Shown here: one piece after another, positions 6,101-55,800 of the stretch
Layout: each line of letters starts with the position of its first letter
Position numbering within the stretch: the first letter of the stretch is position 1
Assembly: GCA_051294375.1 (NCBI GenBank)
Contig: CM119263.1
Span: 18,066,628-18,130,627 of the forward strand
Direction: 5' to 3'
Source: Paraspadella gotoi
Lineage: Eukaryota > Animalia > Chaetognatha
Length of the DNA stretch: 64,000 nt
Translations under genes and position numbers: made by a program
Notes under the pieces: model-generated
Databases searched by the model: none
Told to the model about the DNA's origin: nothing
The model's input: only the letters and a program-made list of their open reading frames with translations

Positions 6101-9100
6101 CTGATGTCGCCGTTCCAGCGACTCAAGGGCCTCAAGGTTCTCGCGTTTGAGTTCTTCCACCAGAAGCTCGTGTTGACCGAGGATTTTTGCCTGAAGGATG
6201 ATGAAAAACCGGTGACCGTACAGAAAAACCAAAGATCCAGAAGAATCAAATAGAGAGGTTGAAAATTATCTCGCCCTTCACCAAATTTCAATTTGTTTAA
6301 TGTTTCTGTTCCATTATTCATATATTGATCAAATCAAGTGTAAAAATTATTCAAAACGATTACTGCTGTATCTTTCATTAATACAGATTCCAATTTAAAC
6401 TTTTTCATTTACCAAAATTCTGTATTTCGTAATCAAATTTACGAATCCCAACGGTACTAGGGGACTAAATCAAATCGGATAAATCAAGGTCTTACTTTAA
6501 AATTCCAAAGGCCACACAGAATGCCCCACGTTGTCAGCTATTGCCAGGAAAATAAAGAGTTATTAAACAAAAAATAACCTTTGAAACCCAACGGACATAT
6601 AAAATTATAACTCAGTTGTTAAAATTTTAAACAAGTGTAGTAAAAAGTTTTAAGTCACTGACGAATAAAAAAGACCGTAAAAAATGGAATGGAGATAATC
6701 GTGAGGCGAATGTAATAAAAACGAAGTTCAAAATCGCGCAGATGGAACTCGTAAAAACGGAACTGCGATATCAGGGGCGAATCGTAAGGACAAAGACCCC
6801 GCTTCACGTCTCTTCACGAAACGTTATGACTTCTACATTCGAGGGCAAAAGTGCAAAAGGTGAGAATTCTAATTTTTGACGGACCTGTTCTCGCTGTGCG
6901 TCTTCTTGAATTTGGCGGGTGAGGTCCTCAAACTCGGAGGTGAGGGCAAGTTTGGCACTTTCCATGCGCTGCTTTGTGGTCAATTCGTTGTCACCCGCAG
7001 CGACGGGCGACAAATCAACGACTAAATCAAATAAAATTACATGAAAATAGGTAAAGAAGGCTCGTTCCACAGCAAACATACCTTTTTGCAACTCCTCGAT
7101 CTGAGCTTGCTTCTCCCTCAACTGCGACTCGAGCTGATCGCGGAGTTTCGATCTTTCCTCCTCGAAGTTGCCTTCGATCTCCCGCGTCGCTTTCTCCAGT
7201 TGCGCCAAGTTGTTTTTCAGTTGATTGATTTCCTTTTCGAACTGTTCACGTTCCATCTGCCAGGAGACTCTTTCGTCGATAGACGTTTCTTCCGTCGAAA
7301 TTCCTCCTTCCAACTCCATCTTTGACTTTTCTCTCTCCATTTCTTTGATCAACGCTTTCTCTTTTTCTATCATTTTTTGAATTTTGGATTCGAACTCCTC
7401 CGTAATCTTTTTTCGTTCCTCCTATGACCGAAAAAATAAACGTGGTTGTTAACTAGAATTTAGGAAATTAAATTACTATGGTGGACTAAAATCCACCAAC
7501 CGTTTATCAGCGGCCATTGGTGCCGGAGGCAAGTCATTCGCCTCCCAACCCAAAGGTCCGGGGTTCTAGCCCGGTGGTCGCCTAGCAGTTAAGAGGGACG
7601 GGGCGCTTAACCCGCCTGTGACATGGTGTTACAGCTGATCCGAAGCTCAGGGACTGCTTATAATAAACGGTTCTGTCATTAACACATATCAATAATTACT
7701 GTCTCTTCATTGATGAGCCCGACTTCCGAACACAACAGCAACAACAACACTTTTAGGCGACATGCCTCAACCTGGCATGCACTTTCCGCCCACAAAACAT
7801 CGGCGACATGCCTCAACTTGGTGACGCACTTTCCACCAACAACAATTCACTGAAGAGACGCAACAGACTTCTCCCTACGGGAGGGGGGATGTATGGTGGA
7901 CTAAAATCCACCAACCGTTCATCAGCGGCCATTGGTGCCAGAGGCAAGTCATTCGCCTCCCAACCTAAAGGTCCGGGGTTCTAGCCCGGTGGTCGCCTAG
8001 CAGTTAAGAGGGACGGGGCGCTTAACTCGCCTGTAACATGGTGTTACAGCCTGATCCGAAGCTCAGGGACTGCTTATAATGAACGGTTCTGTCATTAACA
8101 CATCAATAATTACTGTCTCTTCATTACGATCTTTTCTTCTCAAATCTTCAAAACCATCCCTGTCCCACGACCCTTCACATAACAGACCTCGAAAAACTCT
8201 TCGTCTTTCTTCTTCATTTCGCTCATCTCGCGCACGTGTTCTTTTCGCAGAGACATCAACTCTTCACGCGCGTCGTCTTCAATCTCTTCGCGGGCCCGCG
8301 ATCGGACTTCGGCCACTCGCGCCTCCATCAGTTCCTCCACGCGGTCCAACTTTACGGCGTATTCTACGAGAAGGGAGGGGAAGAAACGGATAATTTTTAA
8401 GCATGGTATTTGAATTGAAGAGATTTGCACTGGGAATTAAAAACATGTCAACAATCCACTCATCGCTAGACAAATCGAAATTTTTGTTTATCTCAAAATC
8501 TCCAGAATCGACGCAAAAATGGCGATTATAAAATTTTCAATTAATTACGATTTACCCGAAGCACCGGAACGATTAGAACGAGATTAATGCTCACATTAAT
8601 TAATAACCAATTTAACCATTTGCACAATTACTTTCACTCATACCTTTTTCGAACTCGTTTTTGATCTTTTGTATTTCCTCCATGATCTTGCCCTCTTTGT
8701 ACTCCTCGTCCTTTTCTTCCGAAATCTCGTATATTCCGGTTCGGGAGGATGTCGAGGCCTGAGATTCGTCTTCCTTAACGTCACCGTCATCAACGTCGTC
8801 GTCTTCGCTTTCGGAGTCTGGTTTGAGAGGGTGTATGAGGTTAGGTAGGAATTTGATCTTCAGTCCGAAACACTTTAAAACTGTTACGTTAAAGAAAACA
8901 TTTGTCTGTGTTAAACAAAAACTGCCCGTGAACATGAGAAAGAGAGAGACGCCGAGAAAGCCTCTTGTGGGTTTCATTCAGGATCACACTCGAGACCGTA
9001 CGAGGAGAGCGAACGATTAAAGAGCGTCGAGACGGGGATTGTCTATCGTTTGACAGAAAGAAAAAAAAGAGAAAAAGGTAAAGTAGAGAAAGAAAGATAG

Positions 9101-15100: not shown

Positions 15101-18100
15101 CGTCGGGACATGGAGTAACGAGGATACAGGGAACGACGGCGGCTGCGTCAGCAGTGTCGTCTTCGGAAGCCACGTCGGACGCCGCCATGGAAGCGGCCAA
15201 ATATTTTTTAGCTAATCCAAGTCATTGCAACACAAGAGAAAAGTTCACACAAGATAAAATGCGTTCCGAAGCTTTGCGAAAATTTGAATCTGGGTCTAGA
15301 TCGTCTTCTCTAACGGAGGACAGCAGTTCTTTTGATGCGTGACATCGGTGAAGAGAAAAAAAACCGAAAGACACGACAAAGAAGCTTGAAAATACAGACG
15401 ATAAATTTATCAACTCCACCAACTGCGATAAAAAGAACTAGAAAAAAAGCTCTCGGATCTCGTGAATATAAAGGATTGATTGATAAAAAGAGAAATGCAG
15501 CATGCGACGTTTTGGTCGTCTATTTGGTAATCTCAATCCCGCGCCAGGAATTTTAAAAAATCTGTTGTCGGGGAAAAAAATGCGAATCGCATGCGTTTGT
15601 AAAAAAAATAAAAATGTCAAGAAATTCTTTATTCTAGATTAACTAATTAGAGTTAATTTAATCACATGGATTAATCATTAAGGCTTGCGAGTGCCATATA
15701 ATTATACTTAATAAGGAACGAAAGCCCGCTATTATTAATTATATTATTATATATTATCATATAATAGTATAATATTACATGGTAAAATTGTATATTCACT
15801 GTTTAGCAACTTCCAGGTCGGTGATTTTTTTTTCATCTTATGAGCACAAATGCCTATTATATTAATTATTATGTTCTTATATTAAAATTCCGATAAAAAC
15901 CAAAAATTTTAATAAATTCTTTTATTTTTTAAATTGTTTTAAATATTAAATTGTGTAAGGAAATTAAGCTCAGACATAAAATACGTTTTAATGTATTAGG
16001 AGAGCAGAAAAACCAAATGACAAGATTCTAAGACTTAGACTAAGTCGGTCATTCATGCTCAAAAAGAGACACATGGGATCTCGAGAGCACGCGACGATAA
16101 CATTCGTCCGTAAAAACAGGAGAATATTCGATGCATCTGAGCAAAGGTTTGGCGCGAACCACTGCGAGGCACGAAAATAAGGAAATCAAAGGAAAAAAAT
16201 GTTGAAAAGAAATTTACGAAACGAGCTGATATCAAGATAATTTAAGCATCGATCGTTAGTTATTTCCGTTTTTTCTCCAGGGGGCGACTCTTGTGTTTGT
16301 CTGGATCGTGCGGAGGAGAACCACTCGGAAAAAGAGAAACAGTAAAGAAGAAGATGGCAATCGCCCTTTAAAAAAAATTAAAAAAAGAATAAGCTCTGCG
16401 GTTTAGCGCAGGAGAGCGAAGGCGCCAGGTCAGAGCATCTAACACATGGCAGCGATAAGGAAGCCACGGCTGCCGCCGCAGCAGCCGTGGGCGCAGGTAA
16501 GTGCGCAACCATCGATTGCGAAAAGAGGTGGGGCGGACAATGAAGTTAAAGAACTATCAGTCTAACAAAACGCCTATATTGAGAGGCGCCATGACGAAAT
16601 TAGGTTAACAAGGTAACGGGTAACCGTTTAAACAAACTGAACGAGTTGGTCTAGATTTAAAAATTGAGAAATTAACGTATAAACTTGCGTTTGAAAAAAA
16701 AGTTGATAACGGGACGCGAAAAAAAGGATAATCCGTTTGGTCTTCGGTTCGAGAAAAAAACTCACCTTGGAGTTATAATTCTTGGAAAGCTGAACCGGGC
16801 ATTGCGCCCGTAAATTCCCTCGACTTTTTTTTTGCTTGAAGAAGCTGCTCATTTTGCCGAACTAATTTTGTAATTATTTTTATTAAAATAGTTATAATCC
16901 AGCTCGATGCCGTATATAAGACACGAGAGGCATATGATTAAAACCTGCGGTTCTCAAAAAAAAAAAAAAAAAAAAGAGAAAAAAGGAAAAAAAGTTGTTT
17001 TGTTAGATTTTTTTTGGTCGATTGATCTTCAATGGTTTTCAAAACAACTTCGATCGCCCCTATGTCAGTATGAACTACCCTGTGGCACACCATATAACCT
17101 CGCCTGTTACAAGCATTTATATAAATTGTGAATAATAAAATATTATTAAATATTTATTAAGAAGGCACATTTTTTTTCTTAAATATTTTGCTTTATTTAC
17201 CAAAAAGGAAAATATACAGCAACGAGAGAGACAAATTACAAGACCCTTTAATTGTAAATTTTACAAAATAAAAAACATACTGAAGAGACAGTTATAATTG
17301 TTAGCCCACCATATAACTAAAATAAAATTGGTTTGTTTTAAAACAAGAATAAAGTTTTATTGTTTTAATTTTTATCATAAAAAAATTGAAGTAATAACTA
17401 ATAACAACAAACTAATATCTCCAATACATACAATCATTTAAAAAAAGAAGCTTGGTTAATATTAATTCACCTGTTATTAATGCTGCTCAATGTTTTTTTA
17501 GGGCCCCGATTCAACGAAAAAGAATTTCCGTCGCATTGTCGATCGTTGAGTATAAAAATAGCCGTTGACGGAAATACAATTTTAAGCATAAAAGAGGGCA
17601 ACTTGTATACGAGTATGAAGAAGTCCTGCGGAGTACGTAATGTAATATTTTTTATTCAAGATTATATTGCGAAAATTTACCCAGTTTTATGCGTGATGGC
17701 ATGAATTCGGTAACTTTCAAAAATTCCGAGAGCTGCATTATATAATTTTTTATAACTCTTTATTAAACCAATAAGGAGTTAAAATTTACGTGTGCGGTCG
17801 TAAGAGGATTCGGCTAGTCCATTACGGTTTTGTTCTCTTTGGGCGCGAAAGAGTTTTTTTTTTTTTCGTTTCGCGTCCAAAACTGATCCCGCATCGATGT
17901 TTAAGTCGAGTTCGGCGCGATCCTCTTCGTCAGTACGAAGAGACGCTACGCGTGGGTGAGGCTAAGACCAGGGTTACTCGATAAGTCGGGGAACATTCAG
18001 AGATTGCATGAAAATTTAACCAAAAAATCGTTGAAAGAGAAGTTATGCAATTAAAGAGAACTAAAATATTTAAAAGGATGCATCTCAGAGCATGAATCAA

Positions 18101-37426: not shown

Positions 37427-40113
37427 ATGTCTGACGATAGTAGTCTTAATAGCGGGACAGAGTCAAAAGTAAGATTTAACGTGTTTTTTTTTAAATGCTG
37501 TGAAAATTATAATTACAGTTGTATTTTGGCTCATTATGAAGGCTCACCCAAGAGAATCGACTCAAAGTCTTCTAAACAAAGTGAGAAAAATGTTTTTTTA
37601 TCGTGACATTGTAACAAAGTAAATAATTTTACCTTATTGTTAGGTTAGCGCTTCTCTGCAGCAAGCTATCTCCTCTGGGAGAATGAGAGGGGATGAGGTA
37701 TTATCAATTTGTTGAATCTTATTTGAATTTTGATAATAATTCACTTTTGTATTGACTTAAAGACTTCGATTGGGGAGTCCTTCAGCAAATATCGGGATAC
37801 AAGTAAGAACTAAGATGGAAGTGGAAGGAGCTCACTAACCCTAGATAATTTTGTAAATCGCTTTATTTGAAAAAATGATGCAAGTTGAAAAAATGCTGCA
37901 AGTGGAAAATATGATGCAAGTTGAAAAAAATATTATTAGTGCCGCAGTAACAGTTCAGTTTAAACTCTTGAAAGCGATTGGCGCAGCCACTGGTTTCCCT
38001 ACGTATTTAATTTTTTAACTTTTCCGACAGGGTTTAATTGGGCCGAAGGATTTGAATCTGGAGAAACATCAGTCGTTTATCCGAATCATGACAGGACTGG
38101 CTCGTCCAATTATGTCTATTCGGGTTAGAAAATAAGAGCCGATGAATGATGATGCTTGTCGTAAAAAAATATGCCAGGAACAAAATATACGTCTTAAATA
38201 AAATAGCGAACCAGAAATGTAATTATTTTTTGATTAAACCACTCTCAAGTTAATCGCGTCCCAGCCTTACAACGACGCGCAGTTAGTAGAGTCGGCGTCC
38301 TTGCTTCCGGACGGACTAGCGGAACAGCACCGCACGACGTCCATGGCGATGAAAGTCGCTTCTCATCGAATCGAGTATGGAGTAACCATAATCAGTCGCC
38401 GAGGCCGACGCCGCTGCGCGACCGACCAAGAGACCAAGGGGCCGTTCCGTACTCCGAACCCAACTCACCATTTTCTGGACAGTCGACGCCGGAGAGCGTT
38501 GTCTCCTCAATCGATCAGACGACGGCAGCGTCGAGACGGCCCGCCGCCGACGGTAGAAGGGCGCATGGTTGCGGTCCAGTCAAGAGCGCCTCTGGAGGTA
38601 CAAAAGGCGTCTCCACTTCTGGTGCAGCCGTTAAAAGACCCACGCAAAAGAGCAACTCTTGGGTGAGGATTCCCCTTATTGAATCAAATTCGAATTGTAT
38701 GCGAAAAAAAATAAATCCCAATCTGTTTGACGTTAAGACCCTACTAACTGCTATAGCGATATTGTCAATTTTCCGTTTTCAGACATTCAACCAGGACCAA
38801 TCTCACCGCGACGACGATCAATCGCCATCCAAAGGACGTCGCATCTCCACAGTTTCCGACCAAAGTTAGGAAAAAAACGTGATCAGTTATTTTTAATCCC
38901 GCTCTTGCCGAAAGTTGGGTCAAAAGTTTTTTCAAACCCTCGTAAAAAAGATCGCTGTTCTTTTGTGACCCAACTCACCGCCAGGGAACGACCGACTTCC
39001 GTTGAAAGTCTCCAGTCAACAAACAAAAGACTATTATCTCGCTTTAAGGGGCAAACGCACCTCTTCGAGGGGGTTTGAGAGTAAGAAAATATACAGCGCC
39101 TCTGCCTTTCATTTACATTTAGTTTTTCTCGATTTTTTATTCTTATATTTTGCCCAATCTCTCATTGCAGAGATACAATATACGAAAAACCAAAATTCCT
39201 CTTGGAACTCCTTTAACAGTGAGCACTTAAGATATAAACTTGAAGGAAAGTTGTGTGTGCTTTCGAAATGTCTCCCCTTATATAATTTCATCAGATACTA
39301 ACCAAGACTCTAATGAGGGAGAGGAAGAGGAGGATAATGATCTGGAAGTCCAGGAAGTTCCCGCTCAGTCAGGTCTGTTGTTGTGGTTGGTTTTGACAAC
39401 ATGATCTTAACAACAACTATGCTGATTGAAAATATGTTTAATCGCCCTCAAAGGCTCTGCCTCATCTCAACCGGCAGTCATTTCCCCCGCGGAAAAAAAA
39501 GAGAGTTTTGGTCCTTGCAAACGTCCCCCCTCACGTGCTGGCGCTGGTGGTGACGACACGCCGCGCGAACGCATGACGAGTTACGGGATTGCAGTCTTGA
39601 CGCCGAGATCTCGTCCCGGTGCCGGTGGGCCTGGGGGAGACCGACCGATGGCGCCAGCGCCGCCGCCGCCAAACGACGAGGATCCCTACTGTCCAATTCA
39701 TCCAATTCTTGCCGAGTGAGATAGTTCTTTCCTCTTTTGTTATTTAGTAATTTACAGTTTTCTTTCTTTATATTTCTCTCATTTTTTATCTCTTTTCTTT
39801 CGTCTTTGTTTCCATTTTGTTTTGTTCCTTTTCATCAATTTCATTCCGCTCCGCAGTTACTTTCCTCCGGAATGGTTCAAATGTCTCCTCTCTCTGGACG
39901 ACTGCGCCTGCAAGACTCCGCTCTTCAACTGCATCTACAAGTTGGCCGAAGTCATCGTCTCCAAGAACAGCGAAGTCAAGGGGTTCGCGGTGGAGAAGGA
40001 AGGGCTCATCGACTACAACAACAAATTGAAGACGGAGTTAAAGAAATGGTCGCAGGCGCGGAGCTTTTTTGAAGAATCCCAGATCAAGTTGGAAGGAGAA
40101 TTGCATATGGTAA

Positions 40114-40169
<56 letters not shown>

Positions 40170-43100
40170 AATATCTTGTATTCACAATCGCAGACCGAAG
40201 TTCAACGCGACAACACTGTTAAAAAGATGGAATCATTGAACGCCGTTTTAGACGGAATGCGTGATCAACTCAAAGCCAAAGAGGTCAGTTAAAGAAAAAA
40301 AAGAAAAGGAAAGGAATGAACAAATGAAAGAGTTTTCCTGCGACATTAAGGTTATTTCTTTCAGACTGAGTTGGCAAACGAGTACGCCGCCAAAGGGGAG
40401 ATGAACAGAGAGTTGGAATTTACTCGGCGTGAGGTATTGTCACGTGACGAACAAATCAAAAAGCTCAAGGAGCGAGTCTTAGATGCAGAACGCGAGAGGT
40501 CGGGAGAGGCGAAGAAAAAGGCGGATGGTGAGCCTGAAATAACAAAAAAGCAATCACTTAAAAACTTATATATTCACTTTATTGATAGGGAAGCCAGGTT
40601 CTCTGGGAGTCAATAAACGAGACTAAGAGAGTCTTGATTGAAAGCTTGCGTGAACCCGCGATGTGATTATCTTGTTTGAGCGATGGAGGCCTTAAACCAC
40701 CAAAGCCTGTCCAAAGTCAGGGGCAAGATAGCTTATTTATTAAATGAATGGATAATTTTTATATTTTTTAATTTCATATCAATAAATAATAAATCAAGCA
40801 CGACTTTCTCTCTTTAGCTCAGATATAAAATCAGTCAGAAGTTGGTGAGTTGCGGCGCTTGAGTCGAAATACGTTCAGGAGGATAAAATGAATCAGGCTA
40901 TTTGGCGCAAAGAAAGGCGGAAGCAAACGCCCGAGCCGTCAACGCCAACCTGTTGACGTTACAACATGAATCAATTTCAGAGATGCAGAAGCTTTTGTTT
41001 TTGCCGATCCACAGAATTGTCAAAATTATATAGTTGTCTTTATCATTATTATTAATTTAGTATTTAGTTATATGAAATTAATTTTATTTTTATAACCTCT
41101 CTTAGTCCCCGACATTGTTTTTTTGACAATTTTGGATCTTGCTAGAATCTGAAAAGATTATTAGCTCTGTTATTAGTTTTTTAATTAATAAGAGCAGTAA
41201 AATAATCAAAATATAAAAATAATATGCTGTTTCTCTGTTCCTTTTTTCTTTTTGTATTACGTGATGAGGAGAAACATCATTTTTGCTTAAACTTGTTTGT
41301 TATCTGAGATACTTAATTTTTTTTTAATGAATAATATATTTAAAATATTCAAAAAATAATAAAATAAAATTATTACCTTATTTAAGATCTTAATATACGC
41401 CCTGTGCTTGTGATGACGTTTAAAGAAAATATTACCTATTATGGTGGACNNNNNNNNNNAGCTCAGAATAAAATCAGTCAGTTGAAGTTGGAGTTGGCGG
41501 CGCTTGAGTCGAAATACGTTCAGGAGGATAAAATGAATCAGGCTATTTTGGCGCAAAGAAAGGCGGAAGCAAACGCCCGAGCCGTCAACGCCAACCTGTT
41601 GACGTTACAACAGGTTTGCGATCGAAGCTTGAATCAATTTCAGAGATGCAGAAAAGCATCCGGGTGCGTGAGCTTTTGTTCTTATTTGATATTTAATTAT
41701 TATTTATTATTATTATTTTATTATTTATTATTACCAATCAAATCCTAAAAAAAAACCGAGAGAGAATAAAGAAAGAAAGAAAGGAAAAAAAAGAGAAAAA
41801 CAAAGCACAAAAATTCTGTGACTAAGTTAATCTCTAACGACTAAGGTCAATTTTGATCACAAAAATATAATAGTAAAATAAAAAAATTAAAGCAAAAAGT
41901 ATTTCTCCTTTTGATTGTTTAGATGATTTATTTAAAAAATATTATTCTTATATTTTTATAATAAATAATTTAATAAATAAATAATTTAAACTAATTAAAA
42001 GCAAAAAATTCAACAAATTCAATAAACATTTTATAAATATTAAAACCCCAAAATTTAAAATAATATAATACAAAGTCTACTGATTTTAAATTATTAAAAT
42101 ACATTTAATTAAAGTAAATAAAAAAAAGTATCAAAGGTATGTTTTAGTAAAAGCTGGAGGCGATCCGGGCTAAAAAAATGGGAGGCGAACGCAAAACCGG
42201 AGGCGACGGGGGTCTGGGGAGGCGGGGAGCAGAGGCTGGCAAAATTCAACGTCTCCAGCATCCCTGATCAATTTTTTCGAAATAAAATCAAATTCAAAAT
42301 AAAAAATAATTGTGACGAAACGCACACTTGGCTCAGGAGTACCAACGGCTTGTCAAGCTGAACGAAGGAGATGGAGATTACGCGAAAGATTTGATACTGA
42401 AGTGTAAAAATCTGATGGATCAAAATGAAAAGTTGGAAAAAGAACTCGGAAATGTCAGGTCATTTTTGACGTTAAACGCACCGAGCAAAGAACAGTAAAA
42501 TAGTTTGCGATTCAACCTTCTTATTATGCAAAATTAAGGTGCGAGGCGAATATGCAAATGTCTCAACTTCATCAGGACAAGAATAAAATCAATGTTGAAT
42601 ATCAGAAGTCCGTCAGGTAGGGTAGAGAAGGAAGAGGGAGAGGGGGAGAGAGAGAGAGAGAGAGAGAGAGTTTCTTCCGACGCTTGCATAGCCATAGACA
42701 AACGACAAAAAAAAAACCTTCAACAAACCAGAGAGCGACGTCACTTGGAAACGATGGTGAAAGACCTCCACGCCTCCAACGGACTCTTGCGTCATGAACG
42801 GGAAACTTCTAGCTCCGACATGGAAAGTCTGCGGAATCTGCACGACGCCGTCGTCCAGGAGAAGAAGAAGTTAAAGATCAAGACGGACCACACTATCAAG
42901 TCCCTCAACGAAATGGGTGAGAAAGAATACAGAAAAAGGAGAAGAAGAAGAAGAAGAAAAAAAAGAACGCTAATGGAGCCTCCGTTCTCTCCCCTTTCAC
43001 CCTCAAGTTAAGGAGCTCCGCCTCAAGGTTGCCGAGCTGGAGAGTCGATTCGGCAACGACGACGTCCTCCAGGCCATGTACGACGAGAAAGTCCGCGAGT

Positions 43101-43695
43101 TGGCCGCGATGCAGGTTCGCGAGTCTGGAAATGTTTAAAAATATTGAAGTAAATAGCCGTATTTCAAATGGGAAATAATGAGTGAAATAATTTGTTATAG
43201 CAACTAAAGATATTGCACTCTGGTAGAAAAATCGCTGACGTTTTTTTTATTTTTCAACTCCTAGTAGTCCAGCTTGTTTACTTTCTTAGTTATGTGCTCA
43301 ACAATGGCATGGTCGAATTTCAAAAAAAAAAAAATTTTTTTGCATTTGAAAAGGACCTTCCAGTAATAAGATATATTTTTATATGAAAAATGAAATGTTA
43401 AAAAAATTTGGTTAATCTTACAGCTATAGACATTGGAGTATGTGCCTGAGCATGACCAATCAGAATGTCAAAAGCTTTTTCACAACCACAATGACAGCAA
43501 TTTTTATTTTATAGTTTTTCTAGTTATTGATTTAACTTACGTTTCGTTGAGTTTTGGAAATTTATTAAAAACAGTTTTTAATAGACAAACAACGAGTTTA
43601 TTGACAAAATTAATCGGACATGTTTCGACTCTTATTTAGAGTCTTCATCAGCGTTTTTTCTTAATCAACAAATTTCTCTTTTAACATTGAGTGAA

Positions 43696-43756
<61 letters not shown>

Positions 43757-46700
43757 TTCCAACAAAGAGTGAGGAAAAGACAGTGGTCAGATTTTGAGAA
43801 CAGGTGAAGGTAAGGATAGGGAAGAAGAGAGAGATAAAGAGATAAATAGAGAGAAAAAAATATAATTACATTTGTCAAAGTACAACAAAGATAAAGTAAA
43901 TAAATAAGCAAACTTAATATTTAAAAAAGTCATTAATTTAACTAGTTAGTTAATTAAGAATGAAATATTAAAAAGAAGAATAAGTGAAGAGGGATAGATA
44001 AGTTTAGAATTAGTGAAATATAGATAAAAAAGAGCTCAAAAAAGAGCTGCTTCCCCCCCCCTGCCCGGGCAAAGGTGGGAGAAATTTGTTGATTAAGCAA
44101 AAACGCCGATGAAGACTCGAAATAAGAGTCGAAACATGTCCGACTAATTTTGTCAATTAACTCGTTGTTTGTCTATTAAAAACTGTTTTTCCTAAAGTTT
44201 TTCTAGTTAAAACTTTTTGAAAATACAAATTTCAGCATTGAAACAGAAATTGGAAAAGAACAAGTATCTGGCAACCGCTTGTTGTCTCATTAAACCTTGA
44301 AATATATTAATAGGAATTTTTTTGCATGCTCTCAGGACATTATACTATCTAATCAATGTAAAAAAAAAAGCTGCTGGAAGGCAGTAAAGTATTATCAATT
44401 TGCTATATAAGAACAAAAACGTCAGAAAATTTTTTTAACTAATGAAAAGATCAAATTTAAATCATATTGAGTCGGTTAAGAGTAATAACTTTTTTTTCCT
44501 TCCACCCCAATTTGAAATCCGTGTAAATAACAAAATGGAAACGATAGAAGTAAATGGTACCTTTCAGGCTGCGGTTGACGATAAGTTGTCGGCGATGGCC
44601 GCTGGAATGAAGGGCGCCACCGAGAACCTCCACGCTCAGATCGAGGCGCTGAAAAGAGCGCTGTTGCGGAAGGCGGAAGAGTTAGCGAGGATCAAGTGGG
44701 AGTACGTAGGGGAAGAATTGGAGCTCGAGCCGATCGGTATCCGGTGAGAAGAGGTTGTTCTTCAATCTATTTGTCAATTTTTTCACTCATCTTCGTTTAT
44801 GATATTAAACAACAACATCCTCTTTCTTCTTTCCAGATTCGAGACCGAAGAAGATGGAAGCGTTAAAGTGATTGAAGAGCCGGGTCTCAATAAGGAGGCG
44901 GAGCTGAAGACCATCATCAACGAGATGATGGACAAGCTGGAGCGGCTGCGGGACGACAACGAGCGCTTGAAGGATCTCCTTCGACAGTCACAGGATCGTT
45001 GCGACTGCCTTCAAAAGTGCTACGAGGAGAACAATACTCTGGAAGAACAGTTGGAGAAGTATCGCGAGGTCAGAAGTCAAGATGAGGGGGGGAGAATCCG
45101 CGCGGTATTTTCGACGGCGGATTTGATCGATGATTCCGACGTCCAATCAGATCGTTCGTTCGATGATGGACCAATCGCGGGCCGCGGCTGAGACGACGAC
45201 GGGGATGAAGTTCCATCTCCCGGGTCACTCATCGCGCGGGAGTTTCGATCAAGAAAAATATTCTTACAAAAGAGCCATTACGGAGACGGCAGCGAGCACG
45301 CGCCCCACAACGCGGCCGACCTCGCAAGCGCCTTCTACGATCGGGACGCCTATCCGGCCGATGACATCGATGCCGGCTTCGATGGGGGCGCCTATGCAGG
45401 GCCATATGGCACCACCTATGCAGGGCCCAATGACACCCCATATGCAGTCACCGATGGCAGCCCCCATGCAACCGCCGCCGCCCCAGTCGACTATGGGAGG
45501 TCCACCTGTATACGCTCCAGCTCCGGGACAAGCGCCCATCGGGTCGATGGCGCCCGCTCCGGGACAGCAGCCGATAATACAAGCTGCGCCGCGTACCATG
45601 GCGCCACCTCCAGGACCGGGAGAGTACACGCCGATTTCCTCACGTCCGCCGACGCCGACGGTGGAACCCTCTACACCCTCCGCGGCCGGTGGAGGAATGT
45701 CCAGAGGGCCTTCGAGGATGGCGTCGGCGACTTCGGCCAGCGGAGACTCCGCTATCGACGAAAAGTTGTTGCAGATGGACGAGGCCGTGACGAGGGCATT
45801 GGGCGCCCGCGACGTTCAGCTCCGCCAGTTTTTGGGGCAGAGGATCGAAACGTCGGGTTTGAACGATCCCGAACTGACAGACGACTTAGACAACTACACC
45901 GACTACAACGTGGACTTCGTGGCCGAATTGCAGACCGTCTTCAACCGGGCGAAAGAGTTGGCGGATTTGGCCGAGGAATACAGGTGAGTGTGTGTGTAAT
46001 TGTATGTGTGACTGCGAGGAAGAGATAGCAAATATATAATTGTTCTTTCCTCCGATAAATAGACTTCGATGCTGTGAGTTGGAAGTCCTCTGCGCGAAAA
46101 ACATGCAAGAGTTGGATGCTTACAAGGCGAGTTCGAATTTGTTTTTTTTTATAACGTCCGATTGCAAAAAAATTCTGGAATTCTACTATGAATCATTCTC
46201 GAAGTAATATTACGAATTCGCCTCCGTTGCTTAGGAAATGGAACGATACTTGATCGATAAAGGCATCATTTCTCCGGACTTTCTGCAAAAACTCAAAGCC
46301 AACGTTTTGGAGGAGCTGCAGCCCGAGCCCGAGGAGATGGTGGAGATGGATCACTTCTTAGAGGAACAACAGCAAATGTTGAAAGAAAAAGTGCAGAAAG
46401 AGTGCGCGAGGTGAGTCTGCATTCGATTTTTAAGAATTTCATCGCTTTTTAGAGTTCAATTTGTTTGTTGGTAAAAATGACCCTGAACTCTCTTCTTCAG
46501 CCGGGAAAATTTGATCGACTCTTTGAGGAATCAGTTTATTTACGAAGCGAAGAGAATTGCACGACGAGTTGGAAATTTTGCGTCAAAAGTTGATCGAAAA
46601 GGAGAAGGAATTGCAGGAGCGAGGATTCAAGAAGTCGGGTGAGTAATTATTAGTAATTATTTTTAATCAATATTTTTGTTGTTGTTGTTTTCCTCGTTAT

Positions 46701-49024
46701 TACGCCGTTTCCGATTCGCTCTTACTCCTTCAAATTCCCTTTCTCGTTCCTTTTCCTCATCGCAGCTACTTGGATCGCGAGGGTGCTTGGCGCGATGACG
46801 CTCCGGTTCCAGCGGACGCAGTCGGTTACCGCGATGCCGAAGGAGCTTGGAAAACTCCGTCGCCGCCGCCGAAGGAGCCGGATACGTCGACGGCGCCGGG
46901 AAGTGGCGCGACGAAGTCCCTGATCCGAAAATCGCCGGAACGGTCGACGACCAGGGCCAGTTCCGACAGGCACCGCCACCTCCGCCACCCCCACCGCCTC
47001 CGCCACCTCCACCCCTCCGCCACCTCCCCAAGAACAGCCACCGCCTCAACCACCGCTCCCCACCGCCTCCACCACCGCCGCCACCCCAAGCCCCGCAACC
47101 GGTATATCAGGAACCGCCGCCGCCCCTCAGCCTCAACCTCCGCCGCCGCCGCACCGCCACGCCTCCGGCGCCTCCTGAGCAGCCGCCACCACCGCCACCT
47201 CAACAACCCCCACCGCCTCCTCCTCCCGAACAGCCTGCACCGCCGCCACCCCAGCCACCGCCACCCCCCGTTGCCGGAAATCCACGAGCCGCCTCCACTC
47301 CCTCCGCAAGAGGTCGCGCCTCCACCGCCGCCCCCGCCGGCACCGTCTCCACCCCGAGAGCTTACCCCTGAGCCGGCTCCGCCTCAGCATCAACAGTCGG
47401 TTCACAGCCAGAGGCCGCCGCCGGAGCTGTCGGCTCACTCGGTTGCCGGACCCTCGGTTCACACCATTGGCGAGCCTTCCGTCCACGAGCCGGAAAAGTC
47501 CTCCGTCAAAGAGATGCCGGCCATCTCCTTCAAAGAACCTTCACCAGAACCTTCCGTCCACATTTCTGCCGTCGAAGAGCGAGAGCCTTCGACGCAAATG
47601 AGGGCGCCATCGATGGTGGAACCGCAGCCTACGCGAGCCTCTACGCGGCCGATTTACGCGCTGCCTGTCGACACGCAACCGGGTCCCGCCCATCCGGTGG
47701 GCGGGGTAATGGTGGAAGGTTGCCAAGAGCCGTGCCCGCCGCCGTCGGCTCTCATCGACGAGAAACTGGAGAGAGCGAGACGGTTGGAGGCGAAGGCGAG
47801 TCTGGTTGTTGTTTTCACAACGATTGTTGTTGTTGTTGATCTCCGCGGCTCCATTCTCCTCTCAGGCCGAGATGATGGAGCAGGAACAGATCCGCGTGGC
47901 GGAGACGGCGCTGCAGTGGTCGTCGCAGGTGCTTAAGCGTAAGGCCAAGGACGCCTACACCTGCTTCATGAGCTACTGGCAATCGTTGGGCGGAGTCGTT
48001 CCCGATTGCGACGATCCTTGCGAGAATCGGGCCGCGGCCGCGGCGAGAGACGACGTAAGTTGTTGGTCAAGGTCATTGATCCCTTGATTTGTAATCAATT
48101 GATTTATTACCGTAAAGAGGAGGAGTCGTTGCGCAATTCTTCTTCTTCATCTCATTCGATTTTCACTTCCTTCTTTCTTCTTCTTTCGATAAGACGTCCA
48201 TTTTGTCTCTCTGTATTTCTTGTTATTTTTTTGATCGTTTTCTCATTATACGCCTTACTATCATTTTTCGAGTCCTTACTTATTACTTATTTCAGGGATT
48301 ACAAATCAATATATTCACTCAATCGATCAATCGTTCGATCAATCATTCCATCAGCCAACAACAAAATGAGAAAATCCATCAATTAGTCAATCAAAAATTC
48401 AATCAACGGACAAATGAAACAATCTATTGGTGAATTATTCAGGGCTCGTGTCAAAAATGTACTTTTTAAATGGCTATTGGCGTAGCTTTACAACCCGCGT
48501 CATACTTGAACCTCATCCATTCAACTGCTCATCTCCCGGTTCTATCCAGTGGTTCCCAGGCATCGGCGCCTCCTCCAACGCCCATCGCGGTTCCGACACC
48601 GATGGTCAACGGAACAAGAATCGCGACATGCGTCCGTCTTCGTCGCGACGCCGATCCTCGCCCCATTCTCATCGGCAGTCTCCTTCGCGGCGAGCTCCCT
48701 CGCATCGCTCTCAATCTCATCGCTCCGAATCCCATCGCTCTCAGTCTCATCGCTCTCAATCCCACCACTCTCCTTCTCGGCATCAATCTCGACGTCCGAA
48801 CGGCGCCCCTCGGGTCAGCCACACCCACGAGGGAGACGGATGGCGTCGGTCTTCCCCACGACGAAGGCCCAACGCCAATTACGGGGCGCAACCCGGGTTC
48901 GACGACGAAGACCAATTCAACAACAACAACAGCAAAAAAATGGGCGACTTTGATTGGAAAAAGTTGAAGGAGATGCAGGAGAAGGAGGAGGAGAGAAGGA
49001 GGAGGAAGGGAGCCGCTTCGGAGA

Positions 49025-49831: not shown

Positions 49832-52800
49832 ATGTCGAATGATAAACCAGATAGCGAAACAGAGAAGAAAGAGGATGCCGAAACGGATCCACACCAGACA
49901 AAGGTAAGTTTTAATGATTTACCAGGTCAGTTCGTTCGTTCTATGTAAAATAAATTAGTACAATTAGATAAATGACCTTCCTGTCATTCAAAAGCAGTAA
50001 TTTTATATTAAAATTTTTTTTATTATAGGCTTCTTCTTTGGTTGAAGGCGTATTGACTAAAGGAATCACTCAAGGAGTCAGCGAAAAGGTTTTCTTAATC
50101 TACGCCGACATTTTTTTTCTCGCAATGGAAATTAATTTTTAATTTAATTCTTGAGGTCGCGGAGATCGAACGGAGATCATCTTCACAAGTTGCAATCGGA
50201 GTATTGAATTCTAAGGTGTTTTTCTGCTTTTTTTAACGTGAAAAAATCCAGTTATCGTAGAAAACCTAAAAATGAAAATATCTTAAATATCTTAAATATC
50301 TTATTTAAAGTGAGCTAATTTTTTTCGTATTCAGAATCGCGATACAACCCCCAAAATTTCGGGTAAGATATGTCTTCTTCCGAAATTGTAGTTTTGATGA
50401 GTGAAAGTTATATCTAAGCAAGTTCGTTTTTAAACGTCACAAAATTTAGCCCCAGTAAACAATTTAACGACTGCAAGCGTCAAAGAGGAAGCTGTTAATA
50501 TCATTCAGAGAAACAATCTGTCTCAGGTAAGGCGAGAGAGTTGAAGGGTCCAACATCCAATATTAATCTGTAAGTGTAACAAACACAGGAGGACCACTTA
50601 TCAACAAAGACGAAAAGTGATGTAATGCTCGGAGTTTCCAATTACTCTGAAGGTAAAAAAGAATGATGAAGTGCGACATTTAAAATTATTTATAAACGTT
50701 TACGTTTAAAAAAATGAGACGAACATTGGACACCAGTCGATTAAAGTGTTTGTCGAGGTTTACATTATGATTACTCGAGTCATCTACATAGTTACAATCA
50801 GCAACTGAAAACAAAAAGCTTTTTAAATTTTCAGGATTGGCTCCCCCTCTTCAGCCGACTATTTTAACTCCCGATAACATCGTTAACTCGCGAAGCCGCG
50901 CCCCTTTCGCAGTCGGGGCTCACGAAGCTCCGATAATCGACGAAAGGAAGAAAATGACCTCAGAGCCAGAGGACAGATTGGGAAAGAGGGTAGACAATGT
51001 CCTCAACCAGGTAATACTAGTAAATATATTGTCTTTCTATTTTAACCATCTACTTTAACAAACGAAAATTGTTTTGTACTTCAAGCTATTTCTTTCAGTA
51101 TTTTATTTCCTTTTTTCGTTCACTTTGAAAAGCTGCTTAAATATGCTCGCAGGGAAGGGAAGTTAAATCTGTTTTAGGATTCGATTTCTCTTCACATCAA
51201 TAAACAACGTTGTTGGTTTAAATAAATATGTCTTTTTAGGCGCCCGACTTACCTGCCCTTCGTTCCTCGGGTATGATTATTTTAAGTTTATTTTATTTTA
51301 AATAGCAATTTTTTAATATACACTGGATAGATTTATCAGACTACAAAGAAATGATACCCTCTCGGTCTTCATTTGCTGAAATGAAAGCTCAGCAATTTCG
51401 GTTCGCGACTCCATTTCTTCCGACACAAACAGGTGGTTTAGCTCTGTTGCAAAAAAGATGTTCATGAAAATTACAAGATACAAATTACGCTTAAATATTG
51501 TACGTGCCAGTTGGGTTAATTTGCGTATTCGCGTTATTTTCTCGTTAAGATGTATAGTAATTCAAATCCTATAGTGCAAAAATCTAAACAAACATTATCA
51601 ATCAAAGCAAAAATGTGTTTTTTTCAGCTTACAATACTGACGATACATTTAATCTCCTCTCATTTAATAATGCTCAAGATGCTCATGCTTTTTCGAGTTC
51701 TTTGTCATCGATGAAAAGCTGTGGTGAAAGGATCTTGCAAGAAAACTCAAGTTAGTAAAAGCAAAACATAAAAATTCAGTAATCATATTTGATATACAGC
51801 AGTTAACAAAACACTTGATATTATTTACAAGATGAAAATTTACCCTGCAAAAATTTGAATCAAGAGCTCATCGCGACGGAATCTTGTCGTGATAATTACA
51901 TAAAACAATCCGAGGAAGCAACCAAATCATTTGTTTTCGATTCGGTCAGTGTTTTATTATTGTTTTTATTTTTGTAATTTTTTTTATTATTATTATTGGT
52001 TTATTATAATCAACCTTAATAACATAGATTTTTGAAAACCGTTATAAACAATATTTAATAAAGCTTGATAATACATACCTTTATATATTTAACTGGTTTA
52101 TCTTTCAGGAAGATGTCCCTGAAAACCAATTGGAACAGTTATCAGGTGCTCACCAGTCTAACATATCAAATTTGTATCACTGCTAATTTTTGAAAACTGA
52201 GGCATTAGTTAAATATTTATGTAAATCAAGATTGATATAAGTATTAATTTCGTGGATTCTCGTCTGTCAAAATGGATTTTTTTTACTCATTATTTAATAT
52301 TTATATCACATTATAACGGTATTTGTACAGGGCATGCTGTAAATAAAAGCGCCCGAAACTTCGTTGACGAAGACGCTTCATTTAATGAAGCGGATTTGTT
52401 TGACAATCGAATCGCCAGTTATGGTGCTGAGGCTCTCTTTCCGCAACGCAAAAGAAAGATGACTGGACCCTCTGGGGATCGAGCGATGACCGAGCCTGTA
52501 CCTGATCCACCAAACGACGAGGAGCCATATTGTCCAATTCACCCTATACTCGCAAAGTGAGTGACGGAATTGAAAAAAGTTTCTTTTTAATTATCTGAGT
52601 TTTAGCCAAGGGTGTCTAATGCATCATTCGTGCATGAAGGGTTTACTTAGGTTCATCTTAGTTGCCAAAATATTTTTATTTTGTCATTTTCCATTATACG
52701 CCAAGCAGGTTGAGCCAATTTTTTTTTTCCATTAGCTACTTTCCACCAGAGTGGTTTAAGGCTCTTATGTCTTTGGACGACTGCTCTTGTAAGACTCCAC

Positions 52801-55800
52801 TGTTCAACACGGTTTACAAGTTGGCTGAAATAATCGTTTCAAAGAACAGCGAAGTAAAGGAAGTCGCTGTGGAGAAGGAAGGGCTGGTCGACTACAGCGC
52901 CAAGCTTAAAAAAGAATTGAAAAAATGGTCGCAGGCTCGAAGCTTTTTTGAAGAGACTCAAATAAGGCTCGAGGGAGAGCTGCACAAGGTTTATTTTGTC
53001 AAATAGAATTACCGTTAAAATTTTAATTTACCCCCCAAAATTTTTTTGCACAGACTGAAATTCAGAGAGACAACTCTAACAAAAAGGTCGAGAGTCAAAA
53101 GATTTTGTTGGACAAAATGAAAGAACAGCTGAAAAATAAAGAGGTACTTGAGTCACCATCGTGACCTTGTTGTAACAGATGTAATTCGTAAAATTCCAGA
53201 ATCATTCGTAAAGATAAAAAAATTAATTAATCTAAATTTAGGTCCCTTAAATATAAAATCTTCGGTTTGCTTAAAAGCAAAAAGAAATAAATTTTTGGGC
53301 GTCATTAATTTTTAAAAAAATTTGGTCGTTGTAGTCGGAAATTGCGACGGAAAGTGCATCAAAAGGTGAACTGGAGCGTGAGTTGGAGTTCACTCGTCGT
53401 GAGGTTTTGGCTCGAGACGAACAAATCGAGAAGTTGAGAGAGAGAATACTCGAGGTGGAGAGAGAGCGATCGGACGAGTCGAAGAAGAAAAGCGAAGGTC
53501 AGTTTGAAAATTCCCAAAAAAGATATTCTGAAAGTATGAAGCAGAAAGTAAGTCAATTTTAATGCCTTGCAGTTCAAGCTAAGAACGCTGAACTAAAGGC
53601 CGAGCTGATATCTTTGGAATCCAAGTTTGCAAAGGAAGACAGACTCAATCAAGCAGTTTTGGCTCAAAAAAAAGCTGAAGCTACTTCAAGAGCCGCCGTG
53701 GCCAACCTCCAGACTCTTCAACTGGTAATCTTTTCGACTACTTTAAATTTTAATTTCCGGGAAGTTCAGCTTATAATACGGTAAAAAAAGTGATTTGCGC
53801 GTACATGTTACATAACCAAAATTCTACCCACATTTATACTATTTATAGTTTAATTGTAAAAACAGTTTTTGTTTATTGCTGATTTAATTTAAAAAGTAAT
53901 ATTGCTTGACAGGAATATCAACGAATCCTAAACCTTAACAAGGGGGACAGCGATCAGTCAAAAGAATTAATTGACAAATGTCGTAGTCTGATGGAAACGA
54001 ACCATGAGCTTGAAAAGGAATTGGGTCACTACAGGTATGCCTCAGAAATGCAAATTTTGCAGAATTTTAAAAAAAATACTGTAATTCACCTTTCGTGCTA
54101 TCTTGCCCTTTTATTTATTTTCTAGATGCGAAGCGAACATGCAAATGGCTCAACTCCACGCAGACAAAAACAAAATTAACTTTGAATACCAAAAAATGAT
54201 CAGGTCGATGAAAGAGAAAGAGAAATAATAAACACGCCCCATGTTTTTTAAATTTTTTTTTTGTCTTTCGAGATCACTTTTAATTTCTCACTTTGTTCAT
54301 TTTTTTTTTAAATTAGGGAAAGGACCCACATGGAGACGGCCATCTCCGATCTGCGCGCTTCCAACGGTCTCCTGCGTCACGAGCGCGAGACTTCCAAGTC
54401 GGACGTCAACGCGTTGAGGGTCCAGCTCGACGCGGAGAAGGACGCGAGGAAGAAGGAGAAGATCAAAACGGATTTCATGGTCAAGTCGCTAAATGACACC
54501 GGTGTGTAAGTGTTGAGGGGGAAAAAAAAGAGAGAGAGTAGAGCTGAATGAATATAAGGAGTACCGTTGAAATGATTAAGGAATTTCTGAAAAGTTTTTC
54601 TCGTTTTTGAGTAATATTTTTATAAATTATTATGTATATTTAGAAAACTGTTTTAAGTGTTGTTTTTTCTTTGCTTTTGTTAGTAAAACAACTACGAATA
54701 AAAATCTCCGAGTTAGAGAGTCGAATGGGAAATGAAGATCTTCTGAAGGAAATGTACGACGAAAAAGTCCGAGAAATGGCTAATCTGCAGGTTATAATTT
54801 ATTAATATTATGGTTACTTGGTTTTTTTTTACTTGGTAACCGGTACAACCACAGAATTATCGAATAGCCAATACCAATCAATCAGAAAGCGACCGATCAC
54901 AAGCTAACGATGATGGCAATGAGGATGAAAGGCACGACCGAAAATCTCCACGCTACCATCGAAGCGCTAAAAAGAGCGTTGCTGCGAAAGGCCGAGGAGT
55001 TGGCGAGAATCAAATGGGAGTACGTTGGGGAAGAGCTGGAGTTGCAGCCGATCGGACTCAGGTGAAAATACTGAAAAGTAAAGGGAGACGTAAGAAAAAC
55101 TTGAGAAAAAAAAATACTTGTGGCATTTAGTTAAACAGAGGGCTACTTAATTTTCAACTTAAAGGTTCGAAACCAAATCCGACGGTATGGTGGTGGTTAT
55201 AGAAGAGCCAGGCCTCAATAAAGAGGCAGAATTGAAGAACATCATTAACGAGCTGATGGACAAGCTGGAGCGGTTGAGAGATGACAATGAACGCCTCAAG
55301 GACATCCTCTCCAATTCTCAGCAAAGATGCGACTGTCTTGAAAAAGCTTTCGAGGATAATCAACGGCTTGAGACTCAGGTTAATTGAGATGACAACTCTA
55401 ACTCACACTCATGAACTAAAAAGTTTTGCTAAATTTTGTTCGCACATCTAATTTTGAAACTGATCAAATAGAAAAATATGTGAAAATTTTTTATTTTGCT
55501 GTAAATGTTAAACGAGACTAGTGTCTCACAGGTGGAAAAGTATCGTGAACTCGTAATGGGCCTAGCGAATCAGGCCCGCGACATTCCCGGCAAGGGCAGC
55601 GTTTCGAGGCGAGGGCAAGGCGCGGCAACTGATGACCTCACGGACGTGGAGAAAGCGGCAATAGTTCTGGCGACGGCGGCGGCCAAGAAAATCGTGGACC
55701 ATACGCAGGGTCCTGGAGACGCTGCCGGTGCGATTCCCGGGGTGCCCACGACTTATGCTGCGGCTGCGACGGCTGCAGGCGAACCCACCAAAGCAAACGA

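Follow-up and report, generated by a model that had tools for sequence, protein, structure and literature searches.

We examined a 64,000-nucleotide (nt) stretch of the genome of the chaetognath Paraspadella gotoi (assembly GCA_051294375.1, contig CM119263.1, positions 18,066,628–18,130,627; hereafter the window), in which an original prediction had placed a type-P5 twister ribozyme motif at positions 8000–8073. This motif and a second copy of it were found to lie in the two long terminal repeats (LTRs) of one 647-bp non-coding element, which is almost certainly a terminal-repeat retrotransposon in miniature (TRIM) of the Helenus type. The motif is real, far beyond chance, and is classed here as a twister-type variant outside the Rfam family RF02684. 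The kinds of ribozyme, TRIM and retrozyme involved are already known; what is new is the setting, a twister-type motif in both LTRs of an animal TRIM. The original prediction had recognized the motif and missed this context, an LTR that has a tRNA-like head and belongs to a TRIM of high copy number.

Structure of the Element Carrying the Motif

The repeat that carries the motif is ~233 bp long, and its copies, which are 91–96% alike, each consist of a 5' hairpin, a tRNA-like head, the twister-type motif and an AT-rich tail. Copy 1 forms the 5' LTR of the element (233 bp) and copy 2 its 3' LTR (232 bp); 6 substitutions and 2 indels separate them, and both end in CA. The left LTR end is TA and not TG, and TA...CA ends are also known from a tomato element. 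Public contigs from runs X1, X2, X5 and X9 were aligned to the element, and their depth was summed. The features are as follows.

7473–7476, plus strand: left target-site duplication (TSD), TTAC, identical to 8124–8127
7477–7709, plus strand: 5' LTR, 233 bp, TA...CA; junction contigs of run X1 number 152 at 7477 and 120 at 7709
7710–7891, plus strand: internal region, non-coding, 182 bp; two ~46-bp units (about 7752–7846) could be aligned, and contigs show 43-nt back-jumps
7711–7723, plus strand: primer-binding site (PBS) of tRNA-Trp type, 1 nt past the 5' LTR
7879–7889, plus strand: polypurine tract (PPT), 11 purines, 2 nt ahead of the 3' LTR
7892–8123, plus strand: 3' LTR, 232 bp; loose contig ends in X1/X2/X5/X9 number 168/169/66/29 at 7892 and 76/68/41/25 at 8123
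7894–7913, plus strand: LTR 5' hairpin
7913–7922, plus strand: 5' arm of a long-range stem (partner 8079–8088) that encloses the tRNA-like head and the twister-type motif
7925–7996, plus strand: tRNA-like head, with an A-box-like segment at 7933–7944 and a B-box-like segment at 7977–7987
8124–8127, plus strand: right TSD, TTAC
57453–57686, plus strand: probable solo LTR with a twister-type motif, 91–92% identical to the other two LTRs

The 4-bp duplication was judged on two insertions, the second being the solo LTR, whose flanks (CTCT and TTCT) are alike at 3 of 4 positions. Position 7713 in the primer-binding site is A in this copy and G in 99.9% (X1) and 98% (X9) of the depth, so that the primer site of the family begins with the usual TGG; the common form of the site agrees at 12 of 13 nt with the tRNA-Trp PBS in Helenus-2_SyJa and Gypsy-32_NVi (PMC10886601 Fig. 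S2). The one T4 run on the plus strand of the element, at 7751–7754, is also private to this copy (C at 7754 in 99.9% of the depth). Because of the altered primer site and the private T4 run, this insertion looks decayed. The longest stop-free frame over the whole element is 75 codons.

With default settings, ARAGORN reported no tRNA in the repeat; with -ps85 it matched 3 of 3 LTRs, as compared with 13–24 per 1000 shuffles of each (1.3–2.4%). Box B is an exact GGTTC, and box A departs from TRGCY. The tRNA-like head is likely an RNA polymerase III (Pol III) promoter and not a working tRNA.

Helenus TRIMs (TRIMp3) are described as non-coding elements of <1 kb with a tRNA-like LTR, a PBS, a PPT and, in animal families, a 4-bp TSD (Kojima 2024, PMC10886601). 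Our element shares with them its length under 1 kb, the lack of coding capacity, two LTRs with an A/B-box tRNA-like segment, the PBS, the PPT, the 4-bp TSD and solo LTRs, and its Trp-type PBS is nearly identical to those of Helenus-2_SyJa and Gypsy-32_NVi. It differs from them in the twister-type motif that follows the tRNA-like part and in its left LTR end, which is TA, whereas published Helenus LTRs in the available passages start with TG. In the available main text of PMC10886601, ribozymes appear only in a reference title and none is named in Helenus; a search of passages of its supplement for twister loop motifs, in which line breaks can hide matches, gave no twister-like context. A Helentron/HINE element, a Penelope tail and a plain short interspersed element (SINE) were set aside in view of the PBS, PPT and TSD. 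Self-priming from the tRNA-like end was likewise set aside, its 3' end, as judged by eye, not being complementary to the PBS.

Layout and Specificity of the Twister-type Motif

The three copies of the motif and the parts of copy 2 are listed below; cut sites are predicted from the twister consensus.

7585–7657, plus strand: copy 1, a descriptor match; predicted cut U7608^A7609
8000–8073, plus strand: copy 2, 74 bases; predicted cut U8023^A8024
57561–57634, plus strand: copy 3, inside the probable solo LTR
8000–8004 and 8069–8073, plus strand: P5 of copy 2
8010–8011, plus strand: P2' of copy 2
8012–8013, plus strand: GA of copy 2 (general base G and conserved A)
8014–8016, plus strand: T1' of copy 2, CGG, which pairs with the loop CCG
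8017–8022, plus strand: segment GGCGCT in the place of P1 of copy 2, a self-complementary 6-mer that could pair with 7602–7607 of the other LTR
8023–8025, plus strand: TAA of copy 2 (U^AA cleavage loop)
8026–8028, plus strand: P2 of copy 2
8029–8030, plus strand: T2 of copy 2, GC, partner 8061–8062
8031–8049, plus strand: P3 of copy 2
8050–8054 and 8063–8067, plus strand: P4 of copy 2, with the 8-nt loop TCCGAAGC at 8055–8062

The type-P5 order of elements claimed for 8000–8073 was thus confirmed. As judged by the descriptor described below and by inspection of the sequence, the U^AA loop and the GA are present in 3 of 3 copies. T1 consists of three CGG:CCG pairs and an A.A pair, as is required of type P5; T2 (GC with GC) and P4 with its 8-nt loop are also present, and P4 has 5 bp but only 4 bp in copy 1. 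The one change in T1 is a single swapped pair (C-G to G-C) adjoining the A.A pair. The original prediction had taken this compensated pairing of CCG with CGG as an argument for real structure, and published data uphold it: in the rice twister Osa-1-4, the same T1 swap (C27G/G47C) retains a relative activity of 0.86, as compared with 0.13 and 0.17 for the single mutants (PMC5113685 supplementary matrix). P2 had been given as 2–3 bp; two pairs are contiguous in copy 2, and the third requires a bulged A. T8027 within P2 is private to copy 2, with C in 98.7% of the depth of run X1.

To gauge specificity, we used a type-P5 descriptor that combines the catalytic words with any Watson-Crick T1, a P2 of at least 2 bp and a P4 and P5 of at least 4 bp each, and that was composed after the candidate was known. 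In the window it matched the three copies and nothing more. Among dinucleotide-shuffled versions of the LTR there was 1 match in 183,485, and among 918 window shuffles there was none. The claim of a twister-type fold is supported. None of the 513 viral loci that bear the core words only (34 + 120 + 120 + 119 + 120 in five scans) matched the descriptor, and no phage example of the CGG/CCG form of T1 occurred among them. The descriptor is specific yet insensitive, since it needs the P5 stem, and it recovered 4 of 28 loci in a twister-rich phage set. As a positive control for Rfam, 11 of 20 scanned loci from these 28 pattern matches scored above the Twister-P5 gathering score. At the gathering score no Rfam family was matched anywhere in the window, and there was no hammerhead match either.

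The motif was compared with 10 of the 11 Rfam-confirmed phage P5 twisters (locus L533 was left out). It shares with type-P5 twisters (RF02684) the permutation order, the GA, the UAA, a T1 with A.A, T2 and a P4 with an 8-nt loop. It differs in its P1 of 1 bp, versus 4–5 bp in 8 of 10 natural examples, and in its P2 of 2 bp, versus 3–4 bp in 10 of 10, a figure partly forced by the search pattern; it also has both a P3 and a closed P5, an A-U pair closing P4, and no Rfam score.

Copy Number and Variation across the Family

Summed depth on the LTR in run X1 was about 1.4–2.5 million, versus 93 on unique flank, although such a sum is not a copy number. Together with the counts of junction contigs, these depths point to hundreds to thousands of copies of the family. 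The internal region is itself high-copy, with a summed depth of 0.4–0.77 million in most bins of X1. Relative to the LTR, internal depth was roughly a third in X1 and about a tenth in X5, which fits a family made up of complete elements together with solo LTRs like copy 3. Both LTRs carry A at 7663 and 8079, respectively, where about 99% of the depth has T, and this shared rare allele points to both LTRs having been copied from one template.

P5, P2, T2 and the catalytic bases were free of changes reaching 6% of the depth, all variants listed being considered. At or above this level the motif showed one CpG change in T1, two changes that lie in the P3 loop or in the pair closing it, and changes private to this copy. 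Variants in at least 20% of the depth occurred in the LTR head and tail; these numbers are small and carry no statistical test. Among the variants listed, C>T and G>A changes made up most of the copy variation in 7892–8123, for the greater part at CpG sites, a pattern that suggests that the host methylates the repeat.

In several runs, the consensus of the loose contig ends beside both termini was for the most part ATAT or something very similar, with an agreement of only about 0.4, hinting at a target preference. In runs X10 and X11, which come from two other organisms, 0 contigs fell on the element, which is no proof of its absence there. A metagenome scan with a 19-nt piece returned 11 loci, all short chance matches, and the whole element had no match among annotated phages. 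Within the window, a 23-nt piece at 17281–17303 on the minus strand resembles the LTR 3' end, with the same CA stop (E 0.003–0.15), and is a remnant or a chance match.

Proposed Mechanism

We propose, as a reading on which our judgement is evenly divided, that the twister cuts the element transcript once per LTR, and that the resulting 415-nt RNA is circularized and copied by a Gypsy-type partner. Transcription by Pol III would begin in the 5' LTR, at its tRNA-like head, and read through, since the common form of the element has no T4 stop on the plus strand. The ribozyme would cut at U7608^A7609 and U8023^A8024, probably slowly, and a swapped dimer formed by the P1 segments of both LTRs may help the cutting. 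The predicted 415-nt unit RNA would contain the PBS, the internal region and the PPT and no terminal repeat. Its ends, which are predicted to form 20 pairs, as follows from the LTR fold itself, would be kept in proximity by P5 and by the long-range stem, and a host tRNA ligase would close the circle. In the monomer circle, the ribozyme would be held inactive by a competing hairpin (8014–8017 paired with 8026–8029 in the predicted fold). With tRNA-Trp as primer, a Gypsy reverse transcriptase would then run round the circle and rebuild two LTRs, and the product would be integrated with a 4-bp duplication. Because the unit RNA would have no terminal repeat with which to cross the junction, it would need a circle or a dimer as template, the route proposed in the literature for plant retrozymes (PMC4918200, PMC5680766, PMC7761336).

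The P1 segment had been called vestigial, and as a hairpin it does offer a single pair; what had been missed is that the 6-mer at 8017–8022 is self-complementary at 6 of 6 positions, with a duplex energy of −8.3 kcal/mol that is equaled by 3 of 227 LTR 6-mers, and can pair between LTRs. Pairing of the two 6-mers would supply a 6-bp P1 to each core. Palindromic stems enable dimeric cleavage by hammerheads (PMC6765202; PMC7229834), and by analogy a two-LTR dimer is conceivable here, without support from the nested model. Tandem phage twisters gave no precedent for a palindromic P1; they are two tandem type-P1 twister-like units, 50 nt apart and below the Rfam gathering score, on two phage contigs (L540:89–140 and L547:21–72). 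A more elaborate form of the proposal, in which a Pol III animal LTR retrozyme assembles its twister from both LTRs through the palindromic P1, cuts the full-length precursor only, and is silent in the circle and in solo LTRs, is one that we entertain tentatively and consider rather unlikely.

Evidence against the Mechanism and Expected Activity

Several findings weigh against a working ribozyme and the circle that would depend on it. No Rfam twister match (RF02684) was obtained around any copy, either at the gathering score or with E up to 10. As a hairpin with a loop of at least 3 nt, P1 has 1 pair and thus falls short of a type-P5 P1 stem, and the 5' strand of P2 is 3 nt, as compared with the ~4-bp P2 expected for type P5. 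The fold compatible with activity lies 6.7–8.1 kcal/mol above the minimum, for the bare motif and the whole LTR alike, because 8014–8017 can pair with 8026–8029. In the nested model the swapped dimer does no better than two monomers (gap 16.5 versus 16.7), the probability of P1 pairing in the dimer is near zero, and the P1 duplex of copy 3 is weaker (−3.3 kcal/mol), being self-complementary via wobble pairs. In the family, the change G8058A, which breaks T1, is present in 11–13% of the depth in X1 and X2 and in 2–4% in X5 and X9. The predicted circle is modestly structured, with z −1.9 and 12 of 330 shuffles as stable, and is 53% paired, versus the more than 70% reported for retrozymes. Finally, the runs consist of contigs, in which RNA ends, and a circle as against two-LTR DNA, are indistinguishable.

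Among the 10 natural P5 twisters, the active-compatible fold lies 0–5.0 kcal/mol above the minimum in 9 and 17.1 kcal/mol above it in the tenth; these gaps, like those of the candidate, omit pseudoknot energy. Among 1,948 scored natural type-P1 twister candidates, imperfections in P1 and P2 are well tolerated (PMC11662667), and P1 of twister is dispensable and can be deleted (PMC5408937). We think it fairly likely that the motif self-cleaves in some context. The original prediction had offered two ideas about its activity. That the motif folds only inside the flanking long-range stem was not supported, the energy gap being equal with and without the flanks. Of the other, a minimal or slow variant, the slow part is plausible because a competing hairpin is predicted, and on the modeled energies the motif is probably a slow or switchable twister variant.

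Alternative Explanations

The twister may instead be an inactive passenger that was captured with a SINE-like piece and is locked in the competing hairpin, in which case the element would move as a plain Helenus TRIM. The rudimentary P1 and P2, the missing Rfam match and the large energy gap all fit this explanation, as does the fact that other Helenus families move without a recognizable twister loop, so far as motif-term searches of the available passages go. G8058A, which is common in two runs and mostly occurs without a compensating change, also fits, but it lies at a CpG site, as do other decay changes (other CpG sites vary at 1–10% among the variants listed). All catalytic and pseudoknot positions of the motif are kept, its sole T1 change is compensated on both sides, and its frequent variants lie in the P3 loop, with the variants of at least 20% in the head and tail, although these numbers are small. 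On balance we regard a passenger as unlikely.

An active ribozyme could also serve as a former of RNA 3' ends that replaces the Pol III terminator, cutting in the 3' LTR only and yielding a linear RNA and no circle. Such an RNA would keep a terminal repeat of about 99 nt, from the tRNA head to the cut site, and would allow ordinary LTR reverse transcription. Several published Helenus LTRs have a T-run just past the tRNA-like part, where our element has the twister-type motif and no T4, and with a slow ribozyme many molecules would be cut at just one of the two sites. The same motif, however, is present in both LTRs, and nothing found silences the 5' copy, because the enclosing stem makes no difference to the energy gap. 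We consider this use of the ribozyme improbable.

The view that the ~232-bp repeat represents a tRNA-derived SINE, or else a unit like SM-alpha of Schistosoma, with two copies adjacent by chance, is already largely refuted and very improbable: a tRNA-like head followed by a ribozyme and the existence of solo copies would suit it, but the pair has a PBS, a PPT, one 4-bp duplication around it and a shared rare allele, 33 nt precede the tRNA head, and the internal region is itself high-copy. A chance resemblance to twister, to which the lack of an Rfam match and the late composition of the descriptor lend some color, is just as far-fetched in view of the shuffles (1 of 183,485 and 0 of 918).

Comparison with Known Systems

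LTR retrozymes have been described from plants, with hammerheads, and reviews state that animal retrozymes lack LTR, PBS and PPT. With the plant LTR retrozymes our element shares its non-autonomous nature, a ribozyme (here a candidate one) in each LTR, the PBS, the PPT and the 4-bp TSD (PMC4918200, PMC7761336, PMC5680766), as well as a Gypsy-type partner, which is proposed here, and a predicted block on the ribozyme within the unit RNA. It differs from those of Cervera et al. 2016 in having a twister-type and not a type III hammerhead motif, an animal host and a Trp-type instead of a Met PBS; its promoter is tRNA-derived, its unit is 415 nt versus 600–1000 nt, and its circle is only predicted. 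Because ribozyme, primer and host are different, the element is not a member of this group and at most, if the ribozyme is active, works like one. The idea that it is a twister-based animal counterpart of the plant LTR retrozymes is an analogy for which we see arguments of about equal force on both sides.

The T-variant twisters of Perere-3 in Schistosoma mansoni also combine a long P3 with a P1 that is weak or absent, and they too belong to a retroelement (Liu et al. 2021, PMC8501958). Perere-3, however, is an RTE non-LTR element with the ribozyme marking its 5' end, whereas here the motif lies in the middle of the LTR, one per repeat. Animal non-LTR retrozymes and SM-alpha are likewise small retroelements with a ribozyme per unit, which in some is cleaved as a dimer (PMC7229834, PMC6765202), and SM-alpha has a tRNA-derived Pol III promoter, as our element likely does. 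In contrast to it, their ribozymes are type I hammerheads, and LTR, PBS and PPT are stated to be absent from them (PMC7229834, PMC6765202). Our literature search, for which most subscription papers and Repbase were outside the scope, found no twister in an LTR element (bioRxiv 10.1101/2022.07.19.500677 included).

If the twister is active, animals would have evolved the route through a ribozyme and a circle anew, using a different class of ribozyme and a Pol III TRIM, and twister would have a role in LTR retrotransposition. It would further suggest how a terminator-less Pol III TRIM LTR defines its RNA ends, and it would mean that there are twister variants that Rfam misses.

Host Intron and Surrounding Window

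The element lies antisense in an intron of a host gene.

7422–8187, minus strand: host intron, 766 nt, containing the element; in one contig of run X9, position 8187 is directly followed by the exon that ends at 7420–7421

Because of this spliced junction and the lack of depth on unique intron sequence, run X9 looks RNA-derived; it covers the repeat. The exon at 1242–1445 on the minus strand matches animal pericentrin/AKAP9 proteins, and of the long pericentrin/AKAP9 matches that were looked up, 8 of 8 were animal and 6 of 8 had a PACT domain. Judged by these matches, the minus-strand coiled-coil exons probably belong to one pericentrin/AKAP9-like gene.

The solo LTR sits in another repeat (57139–57439 and 57775–57839) with inverted arms at 57392–57439 and 57780–57827 (85%) and a GTCT/GTCC microsatellite, and related pieces occur at 2084–2422; we take this repeat to be reminiscent of DINE-1/Helentron-type elements. 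At about 39600–47900 and 52400–59800 two paralogous genes lie in tandem, 70–82% alike in DNA; their exons are of coiled-coil and proline-rich type, and family searches for them gave nothing convincing. A 121-nt inverted repeat at 43558–43678 and 44079–44199, 93% complementary and 400 nt apart, resembles a miniature inverted-repeat transposable element. An identical 66-nt coding stretch is found at 40901–40966 and 41547–41612, near an N gap, and represents an exon duplication or an assembly artefact.

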